A stretch of 44,707 bases of DNA from sequence record PP786691.1. One strand, given 5' to 3'. Of this stretch, positions 2,609 through 43,547 are shown piece by piece. Under the pieces are notes generated by a model that worked only from the letters and a program-made list of their open reading frames with translations, did no database searches and was not told the origin of the DNA. Both the position numbers and the translations under genes were made by a program. The stretch is from Escherichia phage phiEco273. Position 1 is the stretch's first letter; every line of letters starts with the position of its first letter.

Positions 2609-3148
2609 TCATTTCTGAATGACCCCGCGCGGATCGGTAGACTTCATGCTGCCGTCGGGGTAGACCAGAATAACACCAATCCCAAATCGTTTGGCATCGT
2701 TGCCAGCCTGAATCATGGCGGCAGCTTGCGCCCTGGCGTTGTCGATATGCTCGCGCACCTTGCGCTCGTCGTATTTGGTATATGGGTGTTCCGTACGGGT
2801 GATCTCTTTCGCCACTACACCAGGGCGCTTAAGTTTATAGTTACGGCCTACGCGGGCGTAATTCACCAGGCCCGTGAGCAGAACGCCGCGTTGTGTTTTA
2901 CCACTGCGCAGCATAACGCCGTCCGTGCTCACGCGGAGCACCTCTAACAGCGACCCGTCACGCACATCACGCAGCACATCACCTACGCGGACGTCATGGT
3001 GCACTACCTGCAAATGCTCATGCAGGGTGGCTTTCTTGTACCAGAATACGCGGTCGCTGGCTTCATGGTACATGCGAACATAGTTCGGCAGCACTTCAAT
3101 CGGGGTAAGGAATCTCCCATTATGCTTATTGCGGAATATCATTTTCAT
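2609..3148 (-). CDS. hypothetical protein
   Basis: 179-aa ORF, protein-like composition, no recognised motif. Confidence 0.5.
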   Translation of the reverse strand: MKMIFRNKHNGRFLTPIEVLPNYVRMYHEASDRVFWYKKATLHEHLQVVHHDVRVGDVLRDVRDGSLLEVLRVSTDGVMLRSGKTQRGVLLTGLVNYARVGRNYKLKRPGVVAKEITRTEHPYTKYDERKVREHIDNARAQAAAMIQAGNDAKRFGIGVILVYPDGSMKSTDPRGVIQK

Positions 3149-3305
3149 TCTGTCAATCTCCTGTAGTTACGAACTAATGTGAGGCGCGAGATAGTGCGGC
3201 GAGTACCACACTTAGGGTGTGAAATAGTCACGTTGCCGTTTGCTTCTTCTGTCACGAAGTAAGTCAGTCGCGTGGCCTTACTCCGCCAGCGTTCAGGTTG
3301 CTTGT

Positions 3306-3575
3306 TCATTTGCTCAGTCTCCAGTGTTTTCCTGCCCGCTCAATGGCAGGCTTCCGGCGTAATGTAATACGAACACCCATTGGTTGCAAGGAAGTCCGCA
3401 CATAGAATCCGTGCTTCGCTGCGAACTGGCGCAAGTAGCGGGTCTGCGTTAATGGCTTCACATCGTCGCGATAACTCCAGAACACAGAATCGCCCTCATT
3501 CGCATTCTCAGCCCATATTCGTATGCAATGCAGGCTAATGCTCCAGGAAAGCCGTTTTGCGCGTCTGCGGTCCAT
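3306..3575 (-). CDS. hypothetical protein
   Basis: 89-aa ORF in operon context. Confidence 0.35.
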   Translation of the reverse strand: MDRRRAKRLSWSISLHCIRIWAENANEGDSVFWSYRDDVKPLTQTRYLRQFAAKHGFYVRTSLQPMGVRITLRRKPAIERAGKHWRLSK

Positions 3576-3584
3576 TTTACCCCC

Positions 3585-3890
3585 TTATTTCGCAAGCTGG
3601 GCGAATAGCTCGCGCTGGGCTTTAATCCGGGCGACGTTTGTCACTGCCGTCTCACCGATCCCGAAGCGATACGCCAGGCGCTCGCGGGCAAAAGCCATCG
3701 CATATTCGCAGATTGCCACGCGCAGCGGTTCCAGTTCGTCCAGGCTGGCAAACATATCATCGAACGCGTGCATGATTCCCTGCTGGGCCAGGATGACAAC
3801 CTGGCGCGCGTCGTCTGCGTTGCCGTCTGTGTGCTTCGCTTCATACAGCTTCGCCACCGCCATTGTGTAATTCCAGATTAAAGCTCTCAT
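3585..3890 (-). CDS. hypothetical protein
   Basis: 101-aa ORF; ATG at 3890 preceded by GAGGA and by a TATATTGGTTGCACACCAACA element also found upstream of the 38330 gene. Confidence 0.5.
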   Translation of the reverse strand: MRALIWNYTMAVAKLYEAKHTDGNADDARQVVILAQQGIMHAFDDMFASLDELEPLRVAICEYAMAFARERLAYRFGIGETAVTNVARIKAQRELFAQLAK

Positions 3891-4105
3891 CGTTCAGTCC
3901 TCATGTTGGTGTGCAACCAATATAGCAGGGTGCTGGGGCGGGCGCAACCAATATTAATCACGCGTATGAAAAGTTGATCGCTATCTGCTGAAACTGCAAA
4001 CTGCATTTTTCACCCACCATTCTGCAACTCGCATTGGTTGCCTAGTTCATCGACGACCGCAATTTACATCATGTTGCCGTGCATTATGCAATCCAGGATT
4101 TTATG

Positions 4106-4290
4106 CAGTCTCAGACGAGGGGGGTGCCAGACCCCCCGTCTAGTCTGAAAGACTGGGGTGCTGTCCCGCTGTCCCGCTCCTCGCCAGGCCGCGTCATCCG
4201 GGGCGGGACAAGGGTGCTGTCCCGCTTTGTCCCGCCCCTGGTCTGTCCCGCTTTTTGTCCCGCTTAGTTTATGCAGTTTTATTGCATAAC
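4106..4290. repeat. Repeat element copy 1: imperfect GC hairpin (GACGAGGGGGG...CCCCCCGTC) followed by 6 direct and 1 inverted copy of GTCCCGC and TTATGCA(G/A)T motifs
   Basis: Direct reading; about 85 percent identical over ~185 bp to 32399-32585 in the same orientation. Confidence 0.8.
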
Positions 4291-4369
4291 TATTCACTAT
4301 ATTTACACTACACGGCAACCAATACGACCGCCTAAAAGCACGCAAAATGGCAACCAATGCGCGCAAAAT

Positions 4370-4600
4370 TTAATCTTTTAAATCGTCATCGGTCGCTGAA
4401 AGCGTGATGGGGATATCCGATTTGATGACCAAATTAGACGACCCATAGATGGCCCCGGTGTGCGGATCGGTATAGAAACCTATCACTCCGCGCTCCACCA
4501 TATCGTCGATTGCCTTCGTCGAAGTGCCACCTTTTGCCAGCCCAGCCTGGCGGACAATTGCCGATTTACTGAATCCAGTATGGTCCGGGTTGTCTTCCAT
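4370..4600 (-). CDS. hypothetical protein (76 aa from internal ATG overlapping primase stop)
   Basis: ORF 4370..4627; ATG at 4600 overlaps upstream stop by one base, suggesting translational coupling. Confidence 0.4.
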   Translation of the reverse strand: MEDNPDHTGFSKSAIVRQAGLAKGGTSTKAIDDMVERGVIGFYTDPHTGAIYGSSNLVIKSDIPITLSATDDDLKD

Positions 4601-6633
4601 CAGTTTTTCCAGTGCCGCATAAAGCACTTTCTCTTTTCGTTGCGCGGTCCGGCGGTGTTCTCTTCCTTAACCGCGGCCTTGCCTGCCGCCTTCGCCTGTT
4701 CAATAGCGAACGGTGCCAGGGCAACCGGTACGAGGTAGAGAGTCTCGTCGCGTGGCGTGGAGGCAATTGGCTTGACGTCCCATCCGGCAACCACGTCGCC
4801 GAAGTCTGGCCCGGTGCTGGTGGACTGGTGCGCCTCGAACGCTTCTGACTTGCGGAGATCTACCTTAACCTTGCACTTGAGCAGGACGAAGCCACGCGGC
4901 GCTTGCTTGATGCCGTTACGTGACTTCTCATGATACAGGTTCAATTGTCCGGGCTGGTTGTCGTCCGGCTGTTCCAGGAAGAACGCAGAATCGACAGCAC
5001 CATGCAGCGCGCCGGACCCGCGTGGCGTTCTGCTGCCGTTTGCACCTTTAGCCGGGTGGTGGATGACTCCCGCACTACCACCTGTATTTTCCGCGATGGC
5101 CTTCAGCGCTTTGACCACTTCACCCATATCGCTGGCGTTGTTCTCGTCGAACGGTTTAGCATCCGCGGACCGCAACGCAACAGTCTGGTTTAGTGAGTCG
5201 AACGCCACCAGGCCAACCGGTTCGCCGTTAGCGGTGCGGTTGATAAAGCTGATAACTTCGCGCAAGCCTGATTTGCTGGTGATATCCCAGCCGCGTGACT
5301 GCAGGTCTATAATGTGCAGCTTGTCCAGGTCGTGCTCATATTTAATCTGCAATGCTTCTTTACGCTGGTTGGAGGCTTCGCCACCTTCCGCATCGAAATA
5401 GAAGCAATGAGACTGGACGACCTTCGCACCGCCAAACGGAATACCGGCGGCAACCGCTCCCATCTGGCCCAGCACATAGAAAGACTTACCGATATTCGAC
5501 TCGCCAGCCATGTACCAGGTCGATTTAAAGTTAATCAACCCCTCGATAATCGGGTCGTGCTTACTGAACAGCGCAACCGGCTCGTTATCCAGATCCGCAT
5601 CGGTGCACACGCCGTATTCTTCGCCGTCGCCAACCGCATCAACGATATGTTCATAGCACGATTCCACTTCTTCGTCGTCCAGCCCCGGAAGGATGGCGGC
5701 GATTTGCTTACGGGACATATTGTGTGGCTCGACGTTCAGGTGATCCGGGATCCCGATAAGACGTAGCGCCAGGTGCTGGTGTCTGTTCAGTTCCGAGCAA
5801 CACTCGTTACCGGTGTGCATACACTTGAAACGGATCTCGCCATCCTTGACCATGATAGCCGTCGACCCTTCGCCGCTGTGCAGATGTTCGTTCGGGCACG
5901 GCACTTCATAACCGCGACCGGAAGATAACTCCTCGAATCCTGCCTGGAAGCACCAGTCCAGAATACCGTCTGCCACTGCGTCGTCACCCTGGGTAAGCTC
6001 GCGGCGTACTTCCTCTTTTTCCACCCCCAGCTTGTCAGCCAGGCGGAGCAGACGACGGACGCGGGCGCGCTTGCCATAGTGGCACTTAATAACAGACTGC
6101 TGGTGTGGCAGGTACATCAGGCGGTTTGTGTCTTTCGTGCAATCGTCGAAGTCCACATCTGACAGACCCAGTTGGTGTAATAGTGCATACTGGACGCGGC
6201 CCAGGTCTTCAGCCGGTACAGGCTTGTCAGTGAGTACCAGGAATCGAGCGCAACGCGTGCCGCCTTTCAGTGGGTGACGGTCGCCGGTTGTGGTGTGAAA
6301 TACGTGTTCCAGCCCCGCGTCAATGAACGCCTTACGGCAGCGGCGTAGGGTGCGGGTGTCGGTACGGTCAATATCGAAGAACAGGATCGAGCGGTCCACC
6401 GCACTGGTCTTACGACGCAATCCGTCACTGGTATACGCCACGATGCCGTCGGCCTTACGCTTGCGGCGCGCATACTCGGCTTTATCTTCCGTCTTGTTGA
6501 TATGCACCGAGGAGATTTCTTTCGCATCTTTGATAAATTCGAAAAATTCATCGGTGGTCATCTGGAAGTTTTCCGCCCTGGCTTTTTCGCCTTTTTTAGC
6601 GGGTCTTGTAACAGCGAATTTAATTAAGCTCAT
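4600..6633 (-). CDS. DNA primase/helicase (N-terminal primase-polymerase-like domain, C-terminal RecA/DnaB-like P-loop NTPase)
   Basis: 677 aa; Walker A GESNIGKS in C-terminal half; N-terminal region with acidic FFDIDRTD motif resembling prim-pol domains; AAGG RBS. Confidence 0.7.
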   Translation of the reverse strand: MSLIKFAVTRPAKKGEKARAENFQMTTDEFFEFIKDAKEISSVHINKTEDKAEYARRKRKADGIVAYTSDGLRRKTSAVDRSILFFDIDRTDTRTLRRCRKAFIDAGLEHVFHTTTGDRHPLKGGTRCARFLVLTDKPVPAEDLGRVQYALLHQLGLSDVDFDDCTKDTNRLMYLPHQQSVIKCHYGKRARVRRLLRLADKLGVEKEEVRRELTQGDDAVADGILDWCFQAGFEELSSGRGYEVPCPNEHLHSGEGSTAIMVKDGEIRFKCMHTGNECCSELNRHQHLALRLIGIPDHLNVEPHNMSRKQIAAILPGLDDEEVESCYEHIVDAVGDGEEYGVCTDADLDNEPVALFSKHDPIIEGLINFKSTWYMAGESNIGKSFYVLGQMGAVAAGIPFGGAKVVQSHCFYFDAEGGEASNQRKEALQIKYEHDLDKLHIIDLQSRGWDITSKSGLREVISFINRTANGEPVGLVAFDSLNQTVALRSADAKPFDENNASDMGEVVKALKAIAENTGGSAGVIHHPAKGANGSRTPRGSGALHGAVDSAFFLEQPDDNQPGQLNLYHEKSRNGIKQAPRGFVLLKCKVKVDLRKSEAFEAHQSTSTGPDFGDVVAGWDVKPIASTPRDETLYLVPVALAPFAIEQAKAAGKAAVKEENTAGPRNEKRKCFMRHWKN

Positions 6634-16312: not shown

Positions 16313-16632
16313 ATACTGCATTCGACGCCATCGACTTTTCAGTGGCAATGACCAATCAGCTTTTTTCCTACGACAGCAAGACCGGCGTTATCCGCCTTAA
16401 GTCAACCGGCTGCAAGATTGGCAACCTCAATACTGCCGATGGCGGTACTCGTATCGAATGCAACGGCAAGACGCTGTCTGGCGCGCGCGTGGCGTGGATT
16501 ATCGCGACCGGCAATACAATCCCCCCAGGCTTCGCCGTTGTGTGCCGTCAGCGCACGCCAGGCCATTACGGCAACCGGATCAGCAATCTTTATTTGGTGG
16601 ACGTTGCGCGCGACCCTAACTTTTATGCGTAA
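16309..16632 (+). CDS. HNH-like (degenerate) endonuclease-fold protein
   Basis: 107 aa; pattern SYDSKTGVIRLK...ARVAWIIATG...GNRISNLYLV resembles HNH_3 homing-endonuclease layout with catalytic His apparently replaced. Confidence 0.35.
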   Translation: MNTAFDAIDFSVAMTNQLFSYDSKTGVIRLKSTGCKIGNLNTADGGTRIECNGKTLSGARVAWIIATGNTIPPGFAVVCRQRTPGHYGNRISNLYLVDVARDPNFYA

Positions 16633-16666
16633 ATTGGTTGCATAATCGTATTGGTTGCATTATATT
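16633..16666 (+). promoter_or_regulatory. Promoter-like element with two direct ATTGGTTGCAT repeats: -35 TTGCAT (16638-16643), 17-bp spacer, -10 TATATT (16661-16666)
   Basis: Direct reading; same architecture recurs at 38270-38310, 18292-18325, 22216-22248 and on the minus strand at ~3895-3960. Confidence 0.5.
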
Positions 16667-16669
16667 GAG

Positions 16670-16713: not shown

Positions 16714-17172
16714 ATGAAAATTTTACAAGAAGAAAAAGATTACTGGTCCGCGCAATGCCTTAAAGCCCGCGAGCAGGCAGAGCGCGTCAGCGCGCTGGCA
16801 GATACCTACCTGTCAAGCTATGAAACGGAAGAAAAGCGCCGCATGGAGTTAGAGGATCGCTTCGAACTGCTTTTTGAATTGATGGGGATTATGCAGCGCA
16901 CAGGATACACCACCAGCGTGGCGCTAAACCGCATCACTGCCGAAGGTCTGCGCGAGCATTGTAAACGCGCCGAGGAGTACGTGCGACCGAAGGGTCGCCA
17001 GTCTAAGATCGACAGGAAAGACCTGGTGCTGATAGCGTGGCGTGCGAACGGCAGCTACTATTCCGATAGCCGACCTCTTGGCAAGGATGAGATGGCGCGG
17101 ATCCAGCGCGTACTTACCCGAGACAAGAAAACGGCCCTGTACGCACTGGACCCGCAGAATGACGAAGAGTGA
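16714..17172 (+). CDS. hypothetical coiled-coil protein
   Basis: 152 aa, GGAGA RBS. Confidence 0.5.
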   Translation: MKILQEEKDYWSAQCLKAREQAERVSALADTYLSSYETEEKRRMELEDRFELLFELMGIMQRTGYTTSVALNRITAEGLREHCKRAEEYVRPKGRQSKIDRKDLVLIAWRANGSYYSDSRPLGKDEMARIQRVLTRDKKTALYALDPQNDEE

Positions 17173-17849: not shown

Positions 17850-18316
17850 AATTACTTATTTGCGATTTGGATGGAGTTATTAACGGTTCAAGCGATGCGC
17901 GCGCCGACCTGGTGCCGGGCATAAAAACTAAATCCACCTTTTGGGCGAAGTGGCACAAAGCGCATATACGCGAAGATCTGAACATGGATATGCTGCCGCT
18001 GCTGACCATGTACAAAGAGCAAGGCTTCGAGATCGCGTATCTGACAAACCGGCAGCGAGAATGCTGGGACACCACAGCCGAGCAATTGGAAGTATTCCCT
18101 AGAGGCCGGTTGTTTATGCGCCACATGATGGACGACACCCCGCCACCAGAGTTTAAGGCGTGCGCCGTGTTCAAAATGGTCTGCTACGCGGACGTGTCGG
18201 AACTGGTCATCATTGAAGACTGTCCGAAGAACATCGCGGCAATTCGTCGGGCGTGCAGCGATTTGGTCCCGAAAATTTATGCGATAAACGTTGCAAAATT
18301 CACTTGCAACCAATAG
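17846..18316 (+). CDS. HAD-superfamily phosphatase (nucleotidase / polynucleotide 3'-phosphatase-like)
   Basis: N-terminal motif LICDLDGVI (DxDG[TV]); 156 aa. Confidence 0.5.
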   Translation: MKLLICDLDGVINGSSDARADLVPGIKTKSTFWAKWHKAHIREDLNMDMLPLLTMYKEQGFEIAYLTNRQRECWDTTAEQLEVFPRGRLFMRHMMDDTPPPEFKACAVFKMVCYADVSELVIIEDCPKNIAAIRRACSDLVPKIYAINVAKFTCNQ

Positions 18317-22199: not shown

Positions 22200-22219
22200 A
22201 GCTAAATCCTCGTAATTGG

Positions 22220-22248
22220 TTGCAATCCTGGTTGAACGGTGTAATACT
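22220..22248 (+). promoter_or_regulatory. promoter-like element with TTGGTTGCAA motif (-35 TTGCAA 22220-22225; -10 TAATAC(T) ~22242-22248)
   Basis: Direct reading upstream of lipoprotein gene; shares motif family with early promoters. Confidence 0.45.
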
Positions 22249-22277
22249 AAACTCAACCAAATAAAGGAGATGATACC

Positions 22278-22508
22278 ATGAAAACTCTAATCAAATCCGC
22301 AATCATTGCCGCGTTTGTAGTAATGGCTGTTGGTTGCTCTTCTGGCCCGCGTCCGGATGGTTGGTGCGCCACGCAAGCAAGCGGCGTATGTGTGGCTAAG
22401 TGGAAAGGCGGTGTAGTTGTTGCGGCGGGTGAAGTCGATATTCGTTATGACGGAATTAAAGGGCATGGCGGATCAGTTCGTGATTATGGCTCTCGGGAGT
22501 GGAACTAA
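22278..22508 (+). CDS. small lipoprotein (candidate superinfection-exclusion lipoprotein)
   Basis: 76 aa; signal peptide with lipobox AVGCSS; AAGGAGA RBS; encoded next to receptor-binding genes on the opposite strand. Confidence 0.55.
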
Positions 22509-23443
22509 TGGCGCAAGGTATCTACATCGATCTTAAGGACGGACGCAACCCGATGATAATCACCTCGGGTATGCGTGCCTTGAATTTTGCGGGTAACTTC
22601 GACGTTTCAAGTGGCGGGTTTAGCAAGTCATTCCCTATTAACGGTAATGAAGGGGCTTCAAGGTTTCTTCTGCCGAACAATGGCGCATACTCCTTCGAAC
22701 TGGATCGTGGTGTTGAGGTTTATTATATAACGGGCTTTTCGTCAACAGCATCCAGCGGAACTATATCTATTGGCTCTGAGAATGGTTATCCCGACCGCGT
22801 AACGCAGTTCTCTGGAACTGTAGTTGAGGTTCTTAGAGCATCGACAGGCCAGGGGATTTACGTTGCCGACAGTACGGATTTTACATCGATAACCACAACG
22901 GACCGGTTGCTTGTCTGCAAATTTGCTCAAACTATATCATTCCATGATAGTTACACCCTCCCAATCTACGGCATACCGTTCGGCAGGTGGGACAATTCCG
23001 GTGTTTCTGTTGAGTACGACGGAGTTAATCGGTTGATTTGTACAAACATAAACACAAATGATACAGGGCACACCCCCGGAAGTGTTACTATGGATTTGGT
23101 TATTTTCCAGATGGTTGCGCCCGTTCCGGGACCGGGGTTAAACATATTTAACCGCAACGGCGCCTGTACTCTTTCAACAGTTACCAGGCCCCTTGTTGTG
23201 TCCGGGTTTATAAGTCTGTCAGGAAGCAATCAGTATATCGGGGATTCTTACTTCCCCATTCTAAGGTGTGGGTTCAACACAAGGGCCATACCAGCATATA
23301 AGGAACTAAGAAACAAAGGCGTAGTTATGAGTGGCGGATATGTAAGGTCGGGAACTGGCTCCCGGATTGTAAGGTACGAAATCGGCAACAGACCCGACGT
23401 TACGATACCAACTCCGCTGCCGTACCTCCCAAACATGTATTAA
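22508..23443 (+). CDS. hypothetical Ser/Thr/Gly-rich protein (311 aa), translationally coupled to lipoprotein
   Basis: ATG 22508 overlaps lipoprotein stop (TAATG); no recognised motifs. Confidence 0.5.
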   Translation: MAQGIYIDLKDGRNPMIITSGMRALNFAGNFDVSSGGFSKSFPINGNEGASRFLLPNNGAYSFELDRGVEVYYITGFSSTASSGTISIGSENGYPDRVTQFSGTVVEVLRASTGQGIYVADSTDFTSITTTDRLLVCKFAQTISFHDSYTLPIYGIPFGRWDNSGVSVEYDGVNRLICTNINTNDTGHTPGSVTMDLVIFQMVAPVPGPGLNIFNRNGACTLSTVTRPLVVSGFISLSGSNQYIGDSYFPILRCGFNTRAIPAYKELRNKGVVMSGGYVRSGTGSRIVRYEIGNRPDVTIPTPLPYLPNMY

Positions 23444-36280: not shown

Positions 36281-37312
36281 TCAGGACGCTTTGGTCGGGG
36301 TAAGCGTAACCAGTACGCCTGCCGTTTCCTTGATGTGACGGGTCGGCACTTCCTGCGCGGCCTGGGTCTTACGACGGCCTTTAGTATCGCCATCACCAAC
36401 AGCGCCAACGTCCTGCACGGTTGCAGGGGCGTTGTCTACCTGGCCCTGGTCCAGTTCCCAGTTAGCGGAAGTGGTGATGTCGGACAGTTTGAACGAGCGA
36501 ACACCTTCGACCGGAGTACGTGCGGACGCCTTCAGACGATAGCCTTTAACCGCCACGTTGAAGTCGAACTCGCCCTGCCACCAACGTTCGATGTTCTCGT
36601 TACCGCCTTTCTCCTGCGCCAGCATATCAAGACCGTTGGTAGTAACTGCAACCGCGCCAGGGACCAGACCAAGCATGTTACCCGTGCCCATAGCATCGGC
36701 AGCGGCATCGGAGATAATGAAGCGACGGCCCAGGCCATCACCCATTACCTGGAGATCGCCAATTGCGAATACCTGTTCTGCGGAAGGGAGTGCCTGGTAC
36801 GCAATGAAGTTTGCCCAGGTGACGCCGTCCATAAACCAGGACTTAATCAAAGACGCCTGATCGCCGAACTTAGAAGCCGCCAGCGGGAAGTCTGCCAGGG
36901 TCGGGAAGGTACGACCGCCAACGCCGTCAACGCGCGCCGGTTGGGTGTATTTTGCCGCTGCGTTGCTCTCGATCGCCGCTTTACTTGCGCCGATACCCGC
37001 CTTCAGGTAATGCAGCATAATAGCTTGAGTAGCCTGTGCCGCAATCTCAGCCGCAACGCTGTTAACGTTGGTTTCGATCTTAGCCATCATGGCCTTAGTG
37101 ATTGCTACCGGACCCACTTTCGCCGACAGGTTAACGGAGTTGGTCAGCATACGCGCCAGCACTTTTGCGGTCGCCGGAGTACCGACAGGGGCATAGGCGT
37201 TACGGTCGGTAACGAGGTTGGCGATCAAGCCTACGGACATTTTTTCTACAACGTCCTTCAGCACTTCACCCGTACCGAGAACAACAGCGCCGTTAGCGGC
37301 GGCGTTGAACAC
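36281..37312 (-). CDS. major capsid protein (main ORF; likely true start at ATG 37382 in another frame, see findings)
   Basis: 343-aa ORF from GTG without RBS; ATG with AAAGGA RBS at 37382 opens a 20-codon ORF in a different frame; composition and position typical of a major capsid protein. Confidence 0.7.
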   Translation of the reverse strand: MFNAAANGAVVLGTGEVLKDVVEKMSVGLIANLVTDRNAYAPVGTPATAKVLARMLTNSVNLSAKVGPVAITKAMMAKIETNVNSVAAEIAAQATQAIMLHYLKAGIGASKAAIESNAAAKYTQPARVDGVGGRTFPTLADFPLAASKFGDQASLIKSWFMDGVTWANFIAYQALPSAEQVFAIGDLQVMGDGLGRRFIISDAAADAMGTGNMLGLVPGAVAVTTNGLDMLAQEKGGNENIERWWQGEFDFNVAVKGYRLKASARTPVEGVRSFKLSDITTSANWELDQGQVDNAPATVQDVGAVGDGDTKGRRKTQAAQEVPTRHIKETAGVLVTLTPTKAS

Positions 37313-37479: not shown

Positions 37480-38181
37480 TTACTCGTCGCCCATTTTAGC
37501 GATGATTTCACCGGCCTGTTTCGTTAAGTCAGTGATACCGAAGCTGTGGCCCATAGTGATTTTCGACTTCACATCTTCGACAACCTGCGTCGGTTTGCTA
37601 GGCGCACCACCGGCTGGCGTGCCAGCCAGGACGGATGCAAAATCGGCGTTATTACGGAACTCTTTTTCAAGCTCTTCCATAGTCAGCGCGGACGGTTTGC
37701 CATCCTGCAAAACACGCACTTTCAAGCTGCCGTCTTCGCCGTCTTCCAGCGTGAGGCGGTCCATAACGTGGCGTTGCATAATGCCAGCATTCTTACCGAA
37801 TAACTTCGAGGCCAGGTCTTTGGCAGCGCTGCCGATGGTTAGATCGTGGATCTGCTTGCGGTAGGCTTCGATTTTTCCCGATGTGTCTGCTTCGTGTTTC
37901 GCAAACTTATCTTTCCAGGACTTGTCGATCGCTTCGAGGTCGCCATTTTTGCGCGCGGCGGCTTCCTCTTTCTCTTTCGCAAGGCGCTCGGCTTCGGCGC
38001 GACGTTCGGCTTCGGCTTTCTTCTCGCTAACCAGCTTCGCGTTATTGTCTTTCAGACCCTTAATCTCCGACTGTACTTCTTCGGCGGTCATGAACGTTGA
38101 TTTATACCCGTCACCATCGGCAACAAAAAGCGCCTTCATACCTTCCGGCAACGCGTCATATTCTGCTTTAGTAAGTTTCAT
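37480..38181 (-). CDS. scaffolding protein
   Basis: ATG 38181 with GGGGGA RBS; acidic, coiled-coil rich (KAEAERRAEAERLAKEKEEAAARK), immediately upstream of capsid gene. Confidence 0.55.
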   Translation of the reverse strand: MKLTKAEYDALPEGMKALFVADGDGYKSTFMTAEEVQSEIKGLKDNNAKLVSEKKAEAERRAEAERLAKEKEEAAARKNGDLEAIDKSWKDKFAKHEADTSGKIEAYRKQIHDLTIGSAAKDLASKLFGKNAGIMQRHVMDRLTLEDGEDGSLKVRVLQDGKPSALTMEELEKEFRNNADFASVLAGTPAGGAPSKPTQVVEDVKSKITMGHSFGITDLTKQAGEIIAKMGDE

Positions 38182-38329
38182 GCTATCCCCCTGGGATTGT
38201 GGCAAAGCGGGCCACCCGCTTGACTTCACGCCTTAATATTATCAGCGATAAAAATAATCGCAAAATTCGCTTGCAATCCGAGTATTGGTTGCATTATATT
38301 GGTTGCACACCAACAACGAGGACACAAAA

Positions 38330-39094
38330 ATGAGACTTACTAAAGACATTAAAAATCAGATTCTGGCTAACATCCTGCGCGACCACGAAATCGCAACCGA
38401 AGCCAAACAAATCATGATGGACTCGCGCGACCTGGCTTATGCCATTACGCTGGACTGTATGCCGGAAGGCATTCGCACGTTCGCCGAGCTACTCGCGCGC
38501 ATTGAAGCAATCGGCGATGACCCGTCGCAGATGTACGGCGTCTGCGTATACACCAACAAGGCGACGTATAGTTATAACACAGACCGCCCAAAAGGTATCG
38601 GCAGCGTTTACGACGCCACTTTCGAAATCAACGCAGGCGGAAACGTCCGTACCGTGTCATTGAGCGGAGACGGACACCGATTCCGAGTACATCGCGGATA
38701 CTGGGAGTATAAATACATGAATAAACTGTCTCCCGATCTCGGCGATATTGTGCCAGGGTATGAGGAAATTTTGTTAGCGTCAGTGTGCGAAGTCGACGAC
38801 GACGGGAAAGCGCTGCCGATATACATGCCACGCGGTCGTATAGACTACCCGGCGGACCATGATTTCTGTAAGCGCCTGGACCGTAACGACAAGGCCCGCC
38901 GTGAGTTGCGGGCTAAGTATGACGCGTTCAAGTTGACCGTTACCGGTGTGCTGGACCTGCACAATACTGACAAGAAGCTGATTAAGGCATGGCCTGAAGT
39001 TGAGCAATTCATCCCTTACCCGGACAAGCCAAAATCCACGGCGGTGGCGCTGGACGTGAAAACACTCAACGAGATTTGCGGCATTCCGCGCTAA
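38330..39094 (+). CDS. hypothetical protein (254 aa), opposite-strand moron within head module
   Basis: ATG 38330 with GAGGA RBS; preceded by TTGGTTGCAT/TATATT promoter-like element and followed by bidirectional terminator. Confidence 0.55.
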   Translation: MRLTKDIKNQILANILRDHEIATEAKQIMMDSRDLAYAITLDCMPEGIRTFAELLARIEAIGDDPSQMYGVCVYTNKATYSYNTDRPKGIGSVYDATFEINAGGNVRTVSLSGDGHRFRVHRGYWEYKYMNKLSPDLGDIVPGYEEILLASVCEVDDDGKALPIYMPRGRIDYPADHDFCKRLDRNDKARRELRAKYDAFKLTVTGVLDLHNTDKKLIKAWPEVEQFIPYPDKPKSTAVALDVKTLNEICGIPR

Positions 39095-39096
39095 CG

Positions 39097-39125
39097 AAAA
39101 AGGGGCCATTACGGCCCCTTAATCA
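39097..39125. terminator. bidirectional terminator (GGGGCC-ATTAC-GGCCCC flanked by A5 / T-rich)
   Basis: Direct reading between 39094 (+ stop) and 39109 (- stop). Confidence 0.55.
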
Positions 39126-39348
39126 TTTGCTGCAACTCCAACACCTGCGCCCTCAGCTTCGCCCCGCATTCCATATTTTTCACGTCAATCATCAAATCCT
39201 CGTCGGGGTCCGCGGACGGGCTATCGAACTTGCACGGCGGTCGCAGTGCCGACTCCGTTAGCGGCATCAACGGCGCGTTGCTTGATCCGCACGCGCTCAG
39301 CATCAAAACTACAATCAGGGCGGTTAGGGCGCGTAACATATTTAACAA
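39109..39348 (-). CDS. o-spanin (Rz1-like outer-membrane lipoprotein)
   Basis: 79 aa; signal peptide with lipobox LSAC; Pro-rich mature region; overlaps 3' end of i-spanin in another frame. Confidence 0.55.
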   Translation of the reverse strand: MLNMLRALTALIVVLMLSACGSSNAPLMPLTESALRPPCKFDSPSADPDEDLMIDVKNMECGAKLRAQVLELQQMIKGP

Positions 39349-39580
39349 CCTCTTTCGTGATAGTCCGGTATTCTACGTCGCGGGCTTGTTCTGCCTGCAC
39401 GGAGCGCTCAACAACTTTAGTTTGCTGCCGTTGGGCTTTTGCTCGTGCCTGTTTCTCAGCCTCTGCCACTACGCCAGCGCGATAGGAGTCCCCTAGCCAG
39501 AATCCTACCGCCAGACCGATAACCAGTCCGATCGCTGCATATTTAATCACGCCATAACCCCCGGTTTTTAAGCTGTGCAA
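39221..39580 (-). CDS. i-spanin (Rz-like)
   Basis: 119 aa; N-terminal TM helix then charged coiled coil (AEAEKQARAKAQRQQ). Confidence 0.55.
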   Translation of the reverse strand: MHSLKTGGYGVIKYAAIGLVIGLAVGFWLGDSYRAGVVAEAEKQARAKAQRQQTKVVERSVQAEQARDVEYRTITKEVVKYVTRPNRPDCSFDAERVRIKQRAVDAANGVGTATAVQVR

Positions 39581-40646
39581 TAGTCATCAGTTCGCCAGAA
39601 TCGGTAAACATCTTCGGCACTTTCACGCCGCGCATAATCTGGTCGGCGCGCTGCACCCCATATAATTCCTCCAGGATGTGGCGCGGCTGGCGCTGCACCC
39701 ATGAGAAGAAATCTGTCTGCGCGTCGACCTGCTCACTAAGCAATCTGCCTGCGTCGGCCTTCAGTGCCGGACGCTTACCACTGGGCCAATCTTCCATACC
39801 TTTGACTTTCCACGTCTCCGTTGAGCGGCAGCAATAATGTAGCTTGCCCGGACCAGCGCCATACTGTGATCCCGCCACCACTTTTCCGCCTCGCTTCCCT
39901 TTCGTATCGGGAGTAACATCAACCGGATAAAACAGGCGATCGCGTAGCTGGCACATGGGAGAAGTATGCGTGTCCAATGTAGATAACCATTGGCGACCTT
40001 CGAGAATATCGTCATTAGCTTTCACCATTAATTCGCGGGCGGTCGCCGCATAGTGGTTGACTGCGGACTTAACAACGCTTGATATTGCTTGCGCACTTCG
40101 ACCGCCTAGCGCGCGCCTCACATCCGCGATAATTTCCATCGTCGGCTTGCCCTGGATGAATCCGGCACGCACCTGATTGCCGATCTGCGTCCTGGTCCAC
40201 TCGGAAAGTGAATCGGGCCACTGCATCATGGTGTTACCCTGGAACGGGTTTTTCATTGCAGTCGCCGCGATCTGCGCGCCGGTCACAACACCCACCACCT
40301 CAACAGCCGGTACGGCGACCGCGGGCTGGATCGCTGCCGTTAATGTGTCGGCGAGATAATCAGCCTCGGTGTCGGCGAACTCCTGAAGGCTTTCCGCCAA
40401 CACCTTAAACTCGGTGCGCAGTTCTGTTTTAACGGTCTTGTCGAGTTGCGTTAACAGAGTGGTAAGTGCCTTGTTGTTCATGGACTTTTTGCCATCAAGT
40501 AACTCGGTCAGCTTACCCAGTAACGTGGGCCGGAACTTCTCCCACATAGCCAACACCCTCCGCGCCTGGTCATTGCTCAGGCGCTGGGTGAAGATGTGAC
40601 GGCGGATCATGCGATCCGCCATATATTGATTAATTGTTCTCGCCAT
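39543..40646 (-). CDS. head morphogenesis protein (minor head protein)
   Basis: 367 aa directly downstream of portal gene; synteny. Confidence 0.6.
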   Translation of the reverse strand: MARTINQYMADRMIRRHIFTQRLSNDQARRVLAMWEKFRPTLLGKLTELLDGKKSMNNKALTTLLTQLDKTVKTELRTEFKVLAESLQEFADTEADYLADTLTAAIQPAVAVPAVEVVGVVTGAQIAATAMKNPFQGNTMMQWPDSLSEWTRTQIGNQVRAGFIQGKPTMEIIADVRRALGGRSAQAISSVVKSAVNHYAATARELMVKANDDILEGRQWLSTLDTHTSPMCQLRDRLFYPVDVTPDTKGKRGGKVVAGSQYGAGPGKLHYCCRSTETWKVKGMEDWPSGKRPALKADAGRLLSEQVDAQTDFFSWVQRQPRHILEELYGVQRADQIMRGVKVPKMFTDSGELMTIAQLKNRGLWRD

Positions 40647-42150
40647 CGTCCGCTACCTTGTCCGGGTCTTCTTCGGTAGATTCTACCGCATCCGGGGACA
40701 TTTGAGGCAATGGGTTCTGATTTCGCAACTCGTCTTCCACCTGCTCGACGGTCTGCGAGTCATCAATGACCCCCTGTGCCATCATCCACTTGATAAAGTC
40801 AGCCAGTCGGACAGTACCGGTCTGCACACCTGCCATCATCGCGGTCATAAGCTGTGCGTCAACCGTGATTTCGGTGTAGAACTTATTCAGCGTTACGCGT
40901 TGATCTGCGGTGTCGCCAGTGAACAGCTTGACGATTTGCAGCGCACGGTTGAAAGCCTTCTCAACGTTACCGGCAATTAGTGACAGGATACTGTTATCAG
41001 TCTGCGCATCGTAGGCCGCTTCAGTTGCCGTCTTCGGTGCGGTCCCCTTCTCGACCAGGGCCGCGCCCAGTTTAGCCATTTGCAATTCGCGGCGCTCACA
41101 CAGTGCAACAGACAAGTTGCGCTCCTCCGCCTGAAGCAGTTTGGCGTCCATGTTCTGGCCCAGGATAACGCCCTTAGTTGCCCCGAGCGCGATTCCGCCT
41201 TTCAGGTTCTTGTCCGCCCATGACTGGGTCAGACCGGTCGCAATGAGTGTAGGCTGGCCCACGATGTGCGCAATCTCTGCGACGTCTGCTTCGGCGTTGT
41301 AGTGCTTAATGTTGATGGACGCAATATCCGCCAGCGGTGCGGCGTCCGGTGTCGCGTTGTTGTCCACCGCACCACACCAGCAAAACGGCAGTTGAGTAAG
41401 CGCATTACCGGAGGCATCCACCAGCGGTACAAGGTCGGTGCGGGTAAACCCACGCGGCAAGTCCATTTGCACCTCGGACGTGTCGGCGTTGTAAAACCAG
41501 CGGCGGGCGTGTGCCGCACCGTTAATCATGCGAAGCTCGGTCCAGATCGTTACTTCGTGGTTTGCGAAGTCGTCCGGGTCTTCGGTGCTGATTTCGTCCG
41601 TTTCCTTCAGCACAATTAGCGTATCAACGCCGTGGGTCTGCCGCCAGTTGATGATCTGTTCTGCCGTGTACAGGCGGATCAACGGACGGTGCGCCGCCAT
41701 CTCAGCGGCGGTCTGCGGCACTACGTTACCCAGTTCATCAAAGTTAGCCTGGCGGTCGTAGTCCACCATAAAGCCCGCTCGGCCCGATTGCAGCACTTCC
41801 GACATAGCACCGCGCAGGAGTTGCGGCAGCGGCATACCACTGCCGTCAACGTCATCAATCAGGTCAGCCATTGCCCCGGAAAGGTCCAGACTTACCGGCT
41901 TCGCAAAGGCAACGCCTAACAGCGCGTTTAGTGTGCGGGCGGTGGCGTTCAGGAATACAGCGCGTTGCTTATACGCTTTATACCGCGCCCGTGATTTAGG
42001 GTCGGTGTTGTCCCCGCTGGCTGGGTGTGGCAGATACAAAGGGCCGCACGCCTTCACGGCGCGCTCACCTGCTACACAATCACGGATCATTTTCCACTCT
42101 GGCGCGATGCGCGCATAGAGCGGGTGCTGGTTGTCAACGTTAACGGTCAT
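40630..42150 (-). CDS. portal protein
   Basis: 506 aa; between terminase large subunit and head morphogenesis genes; acidic C-terminus. Confidence 0.75.
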   Translation of the reverse strand: MTVNVDNQHPLYARIAPEWKMIRDCVAGERAVKACGPLYLPHPASGDNTDPKSRARYKAYKQRAVFLNATARTLNALLGVAFAKPVSLDLSGAMADLIDDVDGSGMPLPQLLRGAMSEVLQSGRAGFMVDYDRQANFDELGNVVPQTAAEMAAHRPLIRLYTAEQIINWRQTHGVDTLIVLKETDEISTEDPDDFANHEVTIWTELRMINGAAHARRWFYNADTSEVQMDLPRGFTRTDLVPLVDASGNALTQLPFCWCGAVDNNATPDAAPLADIASINIKHYNAEADVAEIAHIVGQPTLIATGLTQSWADKNLKGGIALGATKGVILGQNMDAKLLQAEERNLSVALCERRELQMAKLGAALVEKGTAPKTATEAAYDAQTDNSILSLIAGNVEKAFNRALQIVKLFTGDTADQRVTLNKFYTEITVDAQLMTAMMAGVQTGTVRLADFIKWMMAQGVIDDSQTVEQVEDELRNQNPLPQMSPDAVESTEEDPDKVADDGENN

Positions 42151-42161
42151 GGTCGGTTTCC

Positions 42162-43547
42162 TTAGTAGAAGTCTACAGTTGGAACAACGGCGATCGGACG
42201 AATCACAGGGAACAAGTGCGCAATAGGGTAGCCAGCCGCGTCATTCATGTGGTCCACACCGGCAGTTTTATCCGGCTCGCCTTTCTTCAGGTCGTACACC
42301 TGCTGTTCCAGACATTTCGCTAGTGTAGGGCATTTATCCAGGTTGACAAAATACTGGCGCACGCCCTTCGAGTTGCACATCATCGTATTCATCGCGATAA
42401 GTCTGTCTTTCACAGGCGGGTTAACGCTGTCGTATTCCACCTCGAAGCCCGCGTCTTCCAGTTGCGCGATATCAGACGAGGATGCGTTAACAGTCTTACG
42501 AGACTTGCCACTGCTATCCGGGTAAACGACAACCTTACCGGCAGCGCAATGATCTGGGTAGCGCTCCTCGATCGCCTCAATCATAGCCGGTGTGTCAAAC
42601 AGGTCCACAAATTCATCCACCGCGTGAATCTCGTCGCGGAACTCCTTGTTCTCGGTGGTACGCTGCCGTCTTACATACACGACCGCCGCCATTTTCGTGA
42701 CGTTAAAGTCCATACCGATAATCAGCGTGTCTTCCGGCTGCACTTCTTCGGTGCTTGCGTTCTCCTCACGGTTAAACATCTTGTATACCGCGCCCGACGT
42801 AAGGTTAACAAACATACCGTTCAGGTACGCATCGATCAGGTTAGCCGGGTACTGACTGCGAAGCGTGTCGATAAAGTCTGCCGGTAAATGGTGGTTGTCG
42901 GTGGTCTTCGCCCGGATCAGGCGCTTTTGGCTATCCTTCTCCACCTCGAAGATTTGATACATCGCCCGGAAGCCTTCCGGCGTGGACACGATGACAAACT
43001 GGCGGACAAGACCTGCACGCAGACGACCGAGCAATTTGTGATAAGCCGCCATTGCGACGTCTTGCTTCGTGGTGTCGAACTCGTCGGCAACAATCCACGC
43101 GGCGTTAACCCCGATTAGGCGGGTGTAGTTCTCCATTGACTCGCAGATAACGCGGGTCCATTTTCCTTTCACCAGAACGCTATAGATCTTGTCCTGCTTG
43201 TTGAACTTCCACCGGAAGCCCGCCTCGTCGAAAGCCTTCTCCAGTTCCGGATACATGATTTTAACCAGGAGTGGGATAGTCGGCTCGGTCACGATGCCGT
43301 CATGCCCCGGGTTCAGTGTCAGAAGCTGGATGACCTTTCTCGCAGCGACCCACGACTTTCCACCACCGAAGCCGGAACACAGGCCGAGGATTTTAGTCTT
43401 CGTGTCGCGCAGTAGTTCCACCTGGTGCGGAAGGCAATCAGGCTGGTACAGGCGGACGGCCTGCGCAACGCGCGTCGGGCGTGGTGGTCGGTTGCGCTTT
43501 GCGATCGCGCGCTCCAGTGCGCGGTGTTCTGCCGCATAGTTACGCAT
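42162..43547 (-). CDS. terminase large subunit
   Basis: 461 aa; Walker A-like GLCSGFGGGKS, Walker B-like AWIVADEFD, C-terminal nuclease-like region. Confidence 0.8.
   Translation of the reverse strand: MRNYAAEHRALERAIAKRNRPPRPTRVAQAVRLYQPDCLPHQVELLRDTKTKILGLCSGFGGGKSWVAARKVIQLLTLNPGHDGIVTEPTIPLLVKIMYPELEKAFDEAGFRWKFNKQDKIYSVLVKGKWTRVICESMENYTRLIGVNAAWIVADEFDTTKQDVAMAAYHKLLGRLRAGLVRQFVIVSTPEGFRAMYQIFEVEKDSQKRLIRAKTTDNHHLPADFIDTLRSQYPANLIDAYLNGMFVNLTSGAVYKMFNREENASTEEVQPEDTLIIGMDFNVTKMAAVVYVRRQRTTENKEFRDEIHAVDEFVDLFDTPAMIEAIEERYPDHCAAGKVVVYPDSSGKSRKTVNASSSDIAQLEDAGFEVEYDSVNPPVKDRLIAMNTMMCNSKGVRQYFVNLDKCPTLAKCLEQQVYDLKKGEPDKTAGVDHMNDAAGYPIAHLFPVIRPIAVVPTVDFY

Follow-up and report, generated by a model that had tools for sequence, protein, structure and literature searches.

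The genetics of escape from Tmn, a membrane NTPase defence, have been studied with phages SM_S22, SM_A8 and KS_S9 (Yamashita et al. 2025, Commun Biol 8:290; PMC11846954). Spontaneous Tmn escapers of SM_A8 carry the change K216E in the gene nmad5 (K296E in the numbering of SM_S22); reversion of K216E restores sensitivity to Tmn, and the engineered change gives escape. Deletion of nmad5 from SM_S22 yields a viable phage, the gene being dispensable for plaque formation, and Tmn still blocks this phage. The wild-type gene could not be cloned in Escherichia coli, from which toxicity was inferred, and it was proposed that Tmn responds to modified DNA, Nmad5 being a DNA modification enzyme (PMC11846954). 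In phage T2 the protein RIIB directly triggers Tmn, and one RIIB point mutant binds Tmn without activating it (PMC13001434). Here we describe the gene at 38330..39094 on the plus strand of Escherichia phage phiEco273 (record PP786691.1), whose whole sequence of 44,707 nucleotides (nt) is referred to below as the window. This gene of 254 amino acids (aa) is the nmad5 of Dhillonvirus, and its product belongs to the phage-specific Nmad5 family (Pfam PF18757). It is already known, having been annotated (eg as 'Nmad5 domain-containing protein' in phage BF9) and manipulated in near-identical phages, and the finding adds no new entity. The explanation we favour overall, with moderate confidence, is that nmad5 is an early or middle accessory gene whose product is non-catalytic and whose C-terminal motif influences sensing by Tmn.

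The sequence-only reading of this locus had recognised no motif in the product. That statement was overturned by a Pfam scan, in which PF18757 matched with E=1e-56 and 192.6 bits against a cutoff of 27. The match covers positions 1-206 of the 206-position model and residues 1-253 of the protein, and lies above the gathering threshold for membership of the family. The family signature consists of an N-terminal R-L-T...I...N, a central G-G and a C-terminal T-x2-K-L-x3-W-P-E, P and L-N-x3-G-[LI]-P, and it is complete in the window protein (R2, L3, T4; G103, G104; T213, K216, L217, W221, P222, E223; P229; L246, N247; G251, I252, P253). K216, the residue altered in the Tmn escapers, is located in T-x2-K-L-x3-W-P-E, the most conserved motif of the family; among closer homologs it is invariant, and 123 of 139 diverse family members have K, R or Q there. 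The protein is 95% identical to that of SM_S22, 93% to that of SM_A8 and, by tblastn, 97% to that of KS_S9. The nmad5 genes of SM_S22 (coding sequence CDS6) and SM_A8 (CDS7), 93-95% identical at the protein level, represent this same gene: slot, ATG and promoter all agree with those of the window, and the K216 of those studies is present here. In SM_S22, as in the window, nmad5 is alone in the slot, unlike in SM_A8, which has an extra upstream gene of 104 aa.

The two residue numbers in the literature denote the same position, because the annotated start of SM_S22 nmad5 is over-extended by 80 residues. In the GenBank record of that phage both nmad5 (334 aa; 3694..4698 of locus L002) and the scaffold gene (272 aa; 3081..3899) have over-extended N-termini and overlap on opposite strands. 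The true ATG and promoter of SM_S22 nmad5 are the same as in the window, where the longest possible open reading frame (ORF) at this site begins at 38285, so that the 334-aa model is not applicable.

That nmad5 is a real, selected coding gene is shown by its pattern of substitution. Against seven relatives its dN/dS is 0.08-0.15, compared with 0.02-0.07 for the flanking head genes, so that selection is purifying, yet 3-5 times more relaxed than on its neighbours. The sequence-only reading had placed a 254-aa opposite-strand gene inside the head gene cluster, and the ORF (ATG at 38330, TAA at 39092-39094), the ribosome binding site (RBS) and the dN/dS values confirm it. The RBS is a Shine-Dalgarno element GAGGA at 38318..38322, read from the letters, which lies 7 nt before the ATG and is kept in relatives. 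In phage LM40P1 Nmad5 is 63% identical to the window protein, compared with about 90% for the products of neighbouring genes. The window is a Dhillonvirus genome. More than 130 genomes of the genus match the 2.3 kb around nmad5 at 93-95% identity, most closely that of Shigella phage StarDew (~95%). At 60% protein identity or more nmad5 is found in ~149 records, and the capsid gene in ~159 Dhillonvirus-like records.

The wider family is large. An exhaustive profile search returned at least 514 cluster representatives at 50% identity, and a Pfam scan of 139 members found no fused domain, all being single-domain proteins. In PHROGs the window protein is assigned to phrog_1965 only, which is annotated as of unknown function, and neither NCBIfam nor PADLOC gave a meaningful match, the latter including no defence-related model. 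One weak match to a Mu Gam/Gp157-like domain (E=0.003, in 1 of the 139 members) was taken as noise. If a biochemical function were established for Nmad5, several hundred phage protein clusters would gain an annotation, and the value that remains in this locus lies in the biochemistry of this large phage protein family and its link with Tmn.

The promoter-like site of nmad5, which the sequence-only reading had described as TTGCAA-N18-TATATT followed by an element shared with the gene that starts at 3890, was recovered by a scan at 38271..38300 on the plus strand (-35 TTGCAA, 18-nt spacer, -10 TATATT). The shared element is an exact 17-mer, TTGGTTGCACACCAACA, with just two occurrences in the window, at 38299 (+) and 3904 (-); the chance expectation is ~0.11 matches even with 3 mismatches allowed. 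Both copies stand equally far upstream of an RBS and ATG, and the two regions align from the -10 through the RBS. Within the 17-mer is an inverted repeat, TTGGT-N5-ACCAA. TATTGGTTGC is present as two direct copies, at 38283 and 38297, the second running into the 17-mer; together these make up a block at 38283..38315 (+) which is a candidate operator or promoter-class signature. Across 8 Dhillonviruses, including LM40P1, no difference is seen in the -35, the -10 or the 17-mer, and variation is confined to the spacer. A more distant IMG/VR relative (L025; capsid 83%, Nmad5 37% identical) has nmad5 in the same slot behind the same -35 and double ATTGGTTGC layout. The promoter call relies on this conservation, because a generic sigma-70 scan of the window gave a count not above shuffles; the same was true of the terminator scan.

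The motif is not confined to this locus. With at most one mismatch TATTGGTTGC has 16 sites in the window against 2.95 expected, and several of the copies are paired in intergenic regions ahead of non-structural genes. Two sister promoters share longer blocks with that of nmad5. The first, at 3904..3953 on the minus strand, belongs to the gene at 3585..3890 (phrog_9839, annotated as of unknown function) and carries the TATATTGGTTGCACACCAACA block unchanged, along with another copy of TATTGGTTGC. The other, TTGCAT-17-TATATT at 16632..16667 on the plus strand, precedes the gene at 16714..17172 and has the 19-mer TATTGGTTGCATTATATTG in common with the nmad5 promoter. Sites of the form (T)ATTGGTTGC were noted at 3913, 3944, 4315, 4350, 7162, 13690, 16632, 16649, 18306, 22214, 38283 and 38297; paired copies are 14-35 nt apart, and the copy at 18306 is palindromic. 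(T)ATTGGTTGC probably serves as a phage-specific signature of promoters or operators.

Homologs of nmad5 in other phages have varied neighbours, in a neighbourhood survey of 20 viral and 4 prophage loci which is a sample and not a census. In mEp235 the gene is in the pL operon, between N and kil; the pL accessory region of lambda also holds ral and gam. The lambdoid and Stx phage proteins (eg mEp235, HK542) are of the same family and their genes have a similar accessory place among non-essential early genes, but identity to the window protein is ~32% over the C-terminal 100 residues, the genes belong to a long operon and do not form a stand-alone cassette, and the phages in question are temperate. 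In Vibrio phage Athena1 nmad5 adjoins the gene for replication protein O; in a further locus (L029) it lies between helicase-primase and exonuclease, Gp2.5-like single-stranded DNA-binding protein and DNA polymerase genes; in two more it is beside RecT (L031) or after DNA polymerase (L033). Other contexts are ahead of lysis genes (L026, phage Susuwatari) and inside a tail module. The common thread is early, DNA-replication-phase accessory regions. Because its promoter shares long identical blocks with those of a small early-region gene and of the gene at 16714..17172, and because homologs elsewhere occupy pL early operons and replication or recombination modules, nmad5 would belong to an early or middle, non-structural expression class and not with the late head genes. 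Among the three proposals made here about Nmad5 this is the one in which we have most confidence.

Downstream of nmad5 a G+C-rich hairpin at 39100..39120 is common to the convergent nmad5 (+) and spanin (-) transcripts. Its folding energy is -20.4 on the plus and -27.1 on the minus strand (z = -3.5 and -5.1, respectively). A bidirectional terminator had been claimed at this place, and the hairpin is indeed strong on both strands, though better as a terminator for the minus strand, where its tail is UUUUUCGUU, than for the plus strand, where it is UUAAUCAUUU.

The promoter and the hairpin are retained where the gene between them is different. In Sodalis phage SO-1 (Dhillonvirus SO1; 3040..3800 of locus L040) the same promoter, with TTGCAA-N18-TATATT and the 17-mer, and the same hairpin stand between the o-spanin and scaffold genes, and the cargo is gp07, a beta-clamp-like product (phrog_3007) annotated as 'possible moron gene product'; nmad5 is absent and the head genes are the same. 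In phage WF5505 a gp07-like gene comes after nmad5. SM_A8 (3937..4251 of L003) and SSL-2009a (2132..2461 of L013) have an extra gene of 104-109 aa (phrog_24635, annotated as of unknown function) upstream of nmad5; it is inserted exactly between the 17-mer and the nmad5 RBS, and is present in many relatives. SO-1, in keeping promoter and hairpin with a different cargo, shows that the conserved unit is the slot and not the gene. Comparison of relatives shows the scaffold/spanin junction, as far as sequence elements can tell, to be a conserved expression slot with exchangeable cargo, of which nmad5 is by far the commonest occupant. Such a promoter-terminator slot would be a natural site for payloads in therapeutic Dhillonvirus phages.

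The gene had been proposed to be an autonomous insert, or moron. Between otherwise adjacent genes the cargo is replaced in SO-1 and joined by extra genes in SM_A8, SSL-2009a and WF5505, and the elements of a promoter and terminator of its own, as read from the letters, are present and conserved, which together make the moron reading of the cassette well supported. As with the morons of HK97 and lambda, nmad5 has its own putative promoter and terminator, lies inside a structural module, and occupies a site where cargo varies among syntenic relatives. Unlike them, it is near-fixed in its genus (~149 of ~159 records), is antisense to the module, and has a promoter of a phage-wide motif class that was not imported with the gene. 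The proposal therefore stands as to the shared promoter and terminator with different cargo in relatives, but not as to sporadic occurrence, given this distribution and the purifying selection. Two small features of the slot were also observed. A GGGGC-GAAA-GCCCC hairpin follows the phrog_24635 gene. In the distant relative L025 (6741..6880) a decayed second copy of the last ~33 codons of nmad5 (WPDVKPFIPAEQKKTGTAVALDTATLNAIWGLLK; ~100 nt) lies directly past the stop and flanks a short ORF in another frame with a lipoprotein signal peptide (LALAGC); this duplicate resembles a scar left by recombination during cassette exchange.

The Nmad5 family was reportedly named by Iyer et al. in 2013 for its neighbourhood with modification genes. 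The explanation in which Nmad5 takes part in phage DNA base modification, as enzyme or as obligatory cofactor, with Tmn answering to the modified DNA, draws on such neighbourhoods: YuA gp15 is flanked by a 5-hydroxymethyldeoxyuridine DNA kinase together with gp14 and, on the other side, by a deoxyuridine monophosphate hydroxymethylase, SN1_019 is listed in the SN1 hypermodification cassette, and in one further locus (L032) nmad5 adjoins a thymidylate-synthase-like gene. Several conserved polar residues in the family are also in its favour. The Yuavirus-type proteins (YuA gp15, SN1_019) share with the window protein the Pfam family, the C-terminal motif and a single domain of ~190-250 aa, but the identity, ~40%, extends over the last 80 residues only. 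Their genes are co-oriented among kinase, aGPT-Pplase and hydroxymethylase genes, whereas the window gene has head and lysis genes as its neighbours (scaffold, capsid, spanins and MuF-like) and the pathway is absent. No hydroxymethylase, kinase, aGPT-Pplase or DpdA gene was found in the window genome, and its only methyltransferases are two simple ones, Dam-like and cytosine, ~21 kb from nmad5. Homologs in lambdoid and Stx phages are a further point against a modification enzyme.

The fold gave no indication of an enzyme. An AlphaFold (AF2) model on the 139-sequence alignment (pLDDT 91, pTM 0.84) has N-terminal helices, a beta-sheet insert, a long helix at 178-209 and small C-terminal helices which carry the conserved motifs. 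Neither a profile search of the PDB nor structural comparison of the model found a solved fold that matches, and no enzyme-like fold was found. Biochemical data on Nmad5 were absent from the literature searched. Dhillonviruses are sensitive to restriction-modification relative to the modified Queuovirinae (PMC8594841), and the hypermodification pathway of M6 was reconstituted in vitro with four other enzymes, in an account that makes no mention of Nmad5 (PMC8989533). That the nmad5 deletion leaves Tmn sensitivity (PMC11846954) is hard to fit with Tmn sensing a modification made by Nmad5, and T2 provides a case in which Tmn is activated directly by a protein (PMC13001434). The 'DNA modification enzyme' label is thus not supported by fold, genome content or distribution, and we regard this explanation as quite improbable. 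If the label is dropped, the Tmn escape result can be reread as a protein, and not modified DNA, being sensed.

In the explanation favoured here Nmad5 would be a dispensable early or middle accessory protein which works by binding and not by catalysis of base modification; of the three proposals this ranks second in confidence. It would be built of a conserved module (the N-terminal helix together with the C-terminal T-x2-K-L-x3-W-P-E ... L-N-x3-G-L-P), long paired helices and a variable beta-sheet insert, would act in the DNA-replication phase on a partner from either host or phage, and would on its own be harmful to E. coli. Least confidently, the surface around the conserved basic position K216 may decide whether Tmn fires. 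Because deletion gives no escape while K216E does, K216E would most simply be neomorphic, a non-productive binder or decoy, or Nmad5 would be one of at least two redundant triggers; alternatively, it may interact with a second trigger. The RIIB mutant which binds Tmn without activating it would be, by analogy, a precedent for a decoy. T2 RIIB is alike in that a single missense change in a phage protein gives Tmn escape (PMC13001434), and it is made early to middle in infection, a timing which for Nmad5 is deduced. It differs in that loss of RIIB function escapes Tmn while deletion of nmad5 does not, and the two proteins have no sequence relationship. Nmad5 was considered as a homolog of T4/T2 RIIB and rejected, the 139-sequence profile giving a probability of 0.2% against T4 RIIB in hhalign.

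Several of the same observations are in keeping with Nmad5 being a host-takeover or anti-defence inhibitor of a host protein (a nuclease, repair or defence factor), with Tmn guarding that target: the moron layout and variable cargo, the toxicity in E. coli (PMC11846954), the lambdoid homologs in the pL accessory region, beside kil in mEp235, and an evolution faster than that of neighbouring genes, as in LM40P1. A simple guard model, however, predicts that the deletion would escape, and the deletion kept Tmn sensing, with no reported plating defect on the laboratory host (PMC11846954); the lack of a PADLOC defence-model match for Nmad5 is also against it. We think it unlikely in this form. It overlaps the explanation favoured here, the main difference being inhibitory purpose. 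A host-interaction or anti-defence role had also been suggested by the sequence-only reading, and here the gene does prove to be dispensable and linked to Tmn (PMC11846954), but as a determinant of Tmn sensing and not as a demonstrated anti-defence or exclusion gene.

A more specific form of the binding explanation is possible rather than probable. Nmad5 may be a mis-named, widespread early binding protein, of a fold without a solved relative, whose T-x2-K-L-x3-W-P-E surface makes direct contact either with Tmn-type membrane NTPases, at their cytosolic arms, or with the true trigger. In that case K216E would turn a sensed protein into an activation-blocking decoy, and in Dhillonviruses one promoter class would serve both the sensed protein and an anti-Tmn gene. 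Some points weigh against a non-catalytic, early binding protein. A new catalytic fold is compatible with the absence of a fold match, and R2, T213, K216, E223 and N247 could be its active site. Yuavirus-type nmad5 lies within a thymidine hypermodification cluster, where a role in targeting or protecting modified DNA is possible. Contact of Nmad5 with Tmn or a host protein is a proposal, the toxicity claim comes from a cloning failure only (PMC11846954), and a literature search for a Dhillonvirus transcriptome, which would bear on promoter use and timing, found nothing usable.

The anti-Tmn gene referred to above is the one behind the sister promoter at 16632..16667. The plus-strand gene at 16714..17172 encodes 152 aa and shares 75% identity with SM_S22 CDS0035, a 'DNA ligase' by annotation. 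SM_A2, KS_S9 and SM_W22 have the CDS0035 gene, and SM_A8 has only a 36-aa remnant; this distribution makes it almost certain that CDS0035 and the published anti-Tmn ORF35 are one gene, and the window phage would therefore carry an anti-Tmn homolog.

The orientation of the window is the reverse complement of the customary Dhillonvirus map, and the head and lysis genes are on the minus strand: terminase large subunit (42162..43547), portal (40630..42150), MuF-like head morphogenesis protein (39543..40646), i-spanin (39221..39580), o-spanin (39109..39348, stop codon 39109..39111) and, past nmad5 in minus-strand order, scaffold (37480..38184) and major capsid protein (36281..37312). Between the scaffold and spanin genes, nmad5 is antisense to the head genes. 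Its position between scaffold and the MuF-like, portal and terminase genes is the one argument for Nmad5 being a head assembly or virion protein. Homology to a structural or assembly protein was looked for, as it would have told against the sequence-only reading, and none was found in PHROGs, Pfam, the PDB or BFVD. The gene is on the opposite strand with a promoter of non-late type, SO-1 has the same head genes without it, deletion mutants are viable (PMC11846954) and homologs elsewhere are in early modules, so that a virion role is effectively refuted.

The insertion of nmad5 had been taken to imply terminators on both sides of it and a separate promoter for the scaffold and capsid genes. The terminator at 39100..39120 stood. 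On the other side there is a small hairpin, AAGCGGGCCACCCGCTT, at 38205..38222 (both strands), between the candidate leftward promoter and the scaffold RBS; it was rejected as a terminator, having no T-run and z values of -0.7 (minus) and -2.0 (plus), which are not significant, and being absent from the terminator scan. It is possibly a 5' leader stem. The candidate leftward promoter for scaffold and capsid, read from the letters at 38236..38263 on the minus strand, has a -35 TTGCGA, a 16-nt spacer and an extended -10 TGATAATAT; the block is conserved in all relatives aligned and falls under the threshold of the consensus promoter scan. A separate leftward promoter is plausible because of the strong minus-strand terminator after the spanins and the conservation of TTGCGA-16-TGATAATAT.

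An inverted repeat GCGAT-N7-ATCGC (38245..38261) overlaps this candidate promoter. Both of its arms are altered together in LM40P1 (GTGAT...ATCAC) and one arm only in SSL-2009a; it may serve as an operator or form a leader structure. At the other end of the slot, the last codons of the o-spanin gene with its stop (39109..39120) fall within the stem of the terminator hairpin. A second opposite-strand island is present at 22214..23443 (+), within the tail-fibre region. Its ORFs span 22278..23443 and encode a 76-aa lipoprotein (22278..22508, lipobox VGC) and a 314-aa protein, and upstream of them AATTGGTTGCAATCC...TAATAC resembles the -35 region of nmad5.

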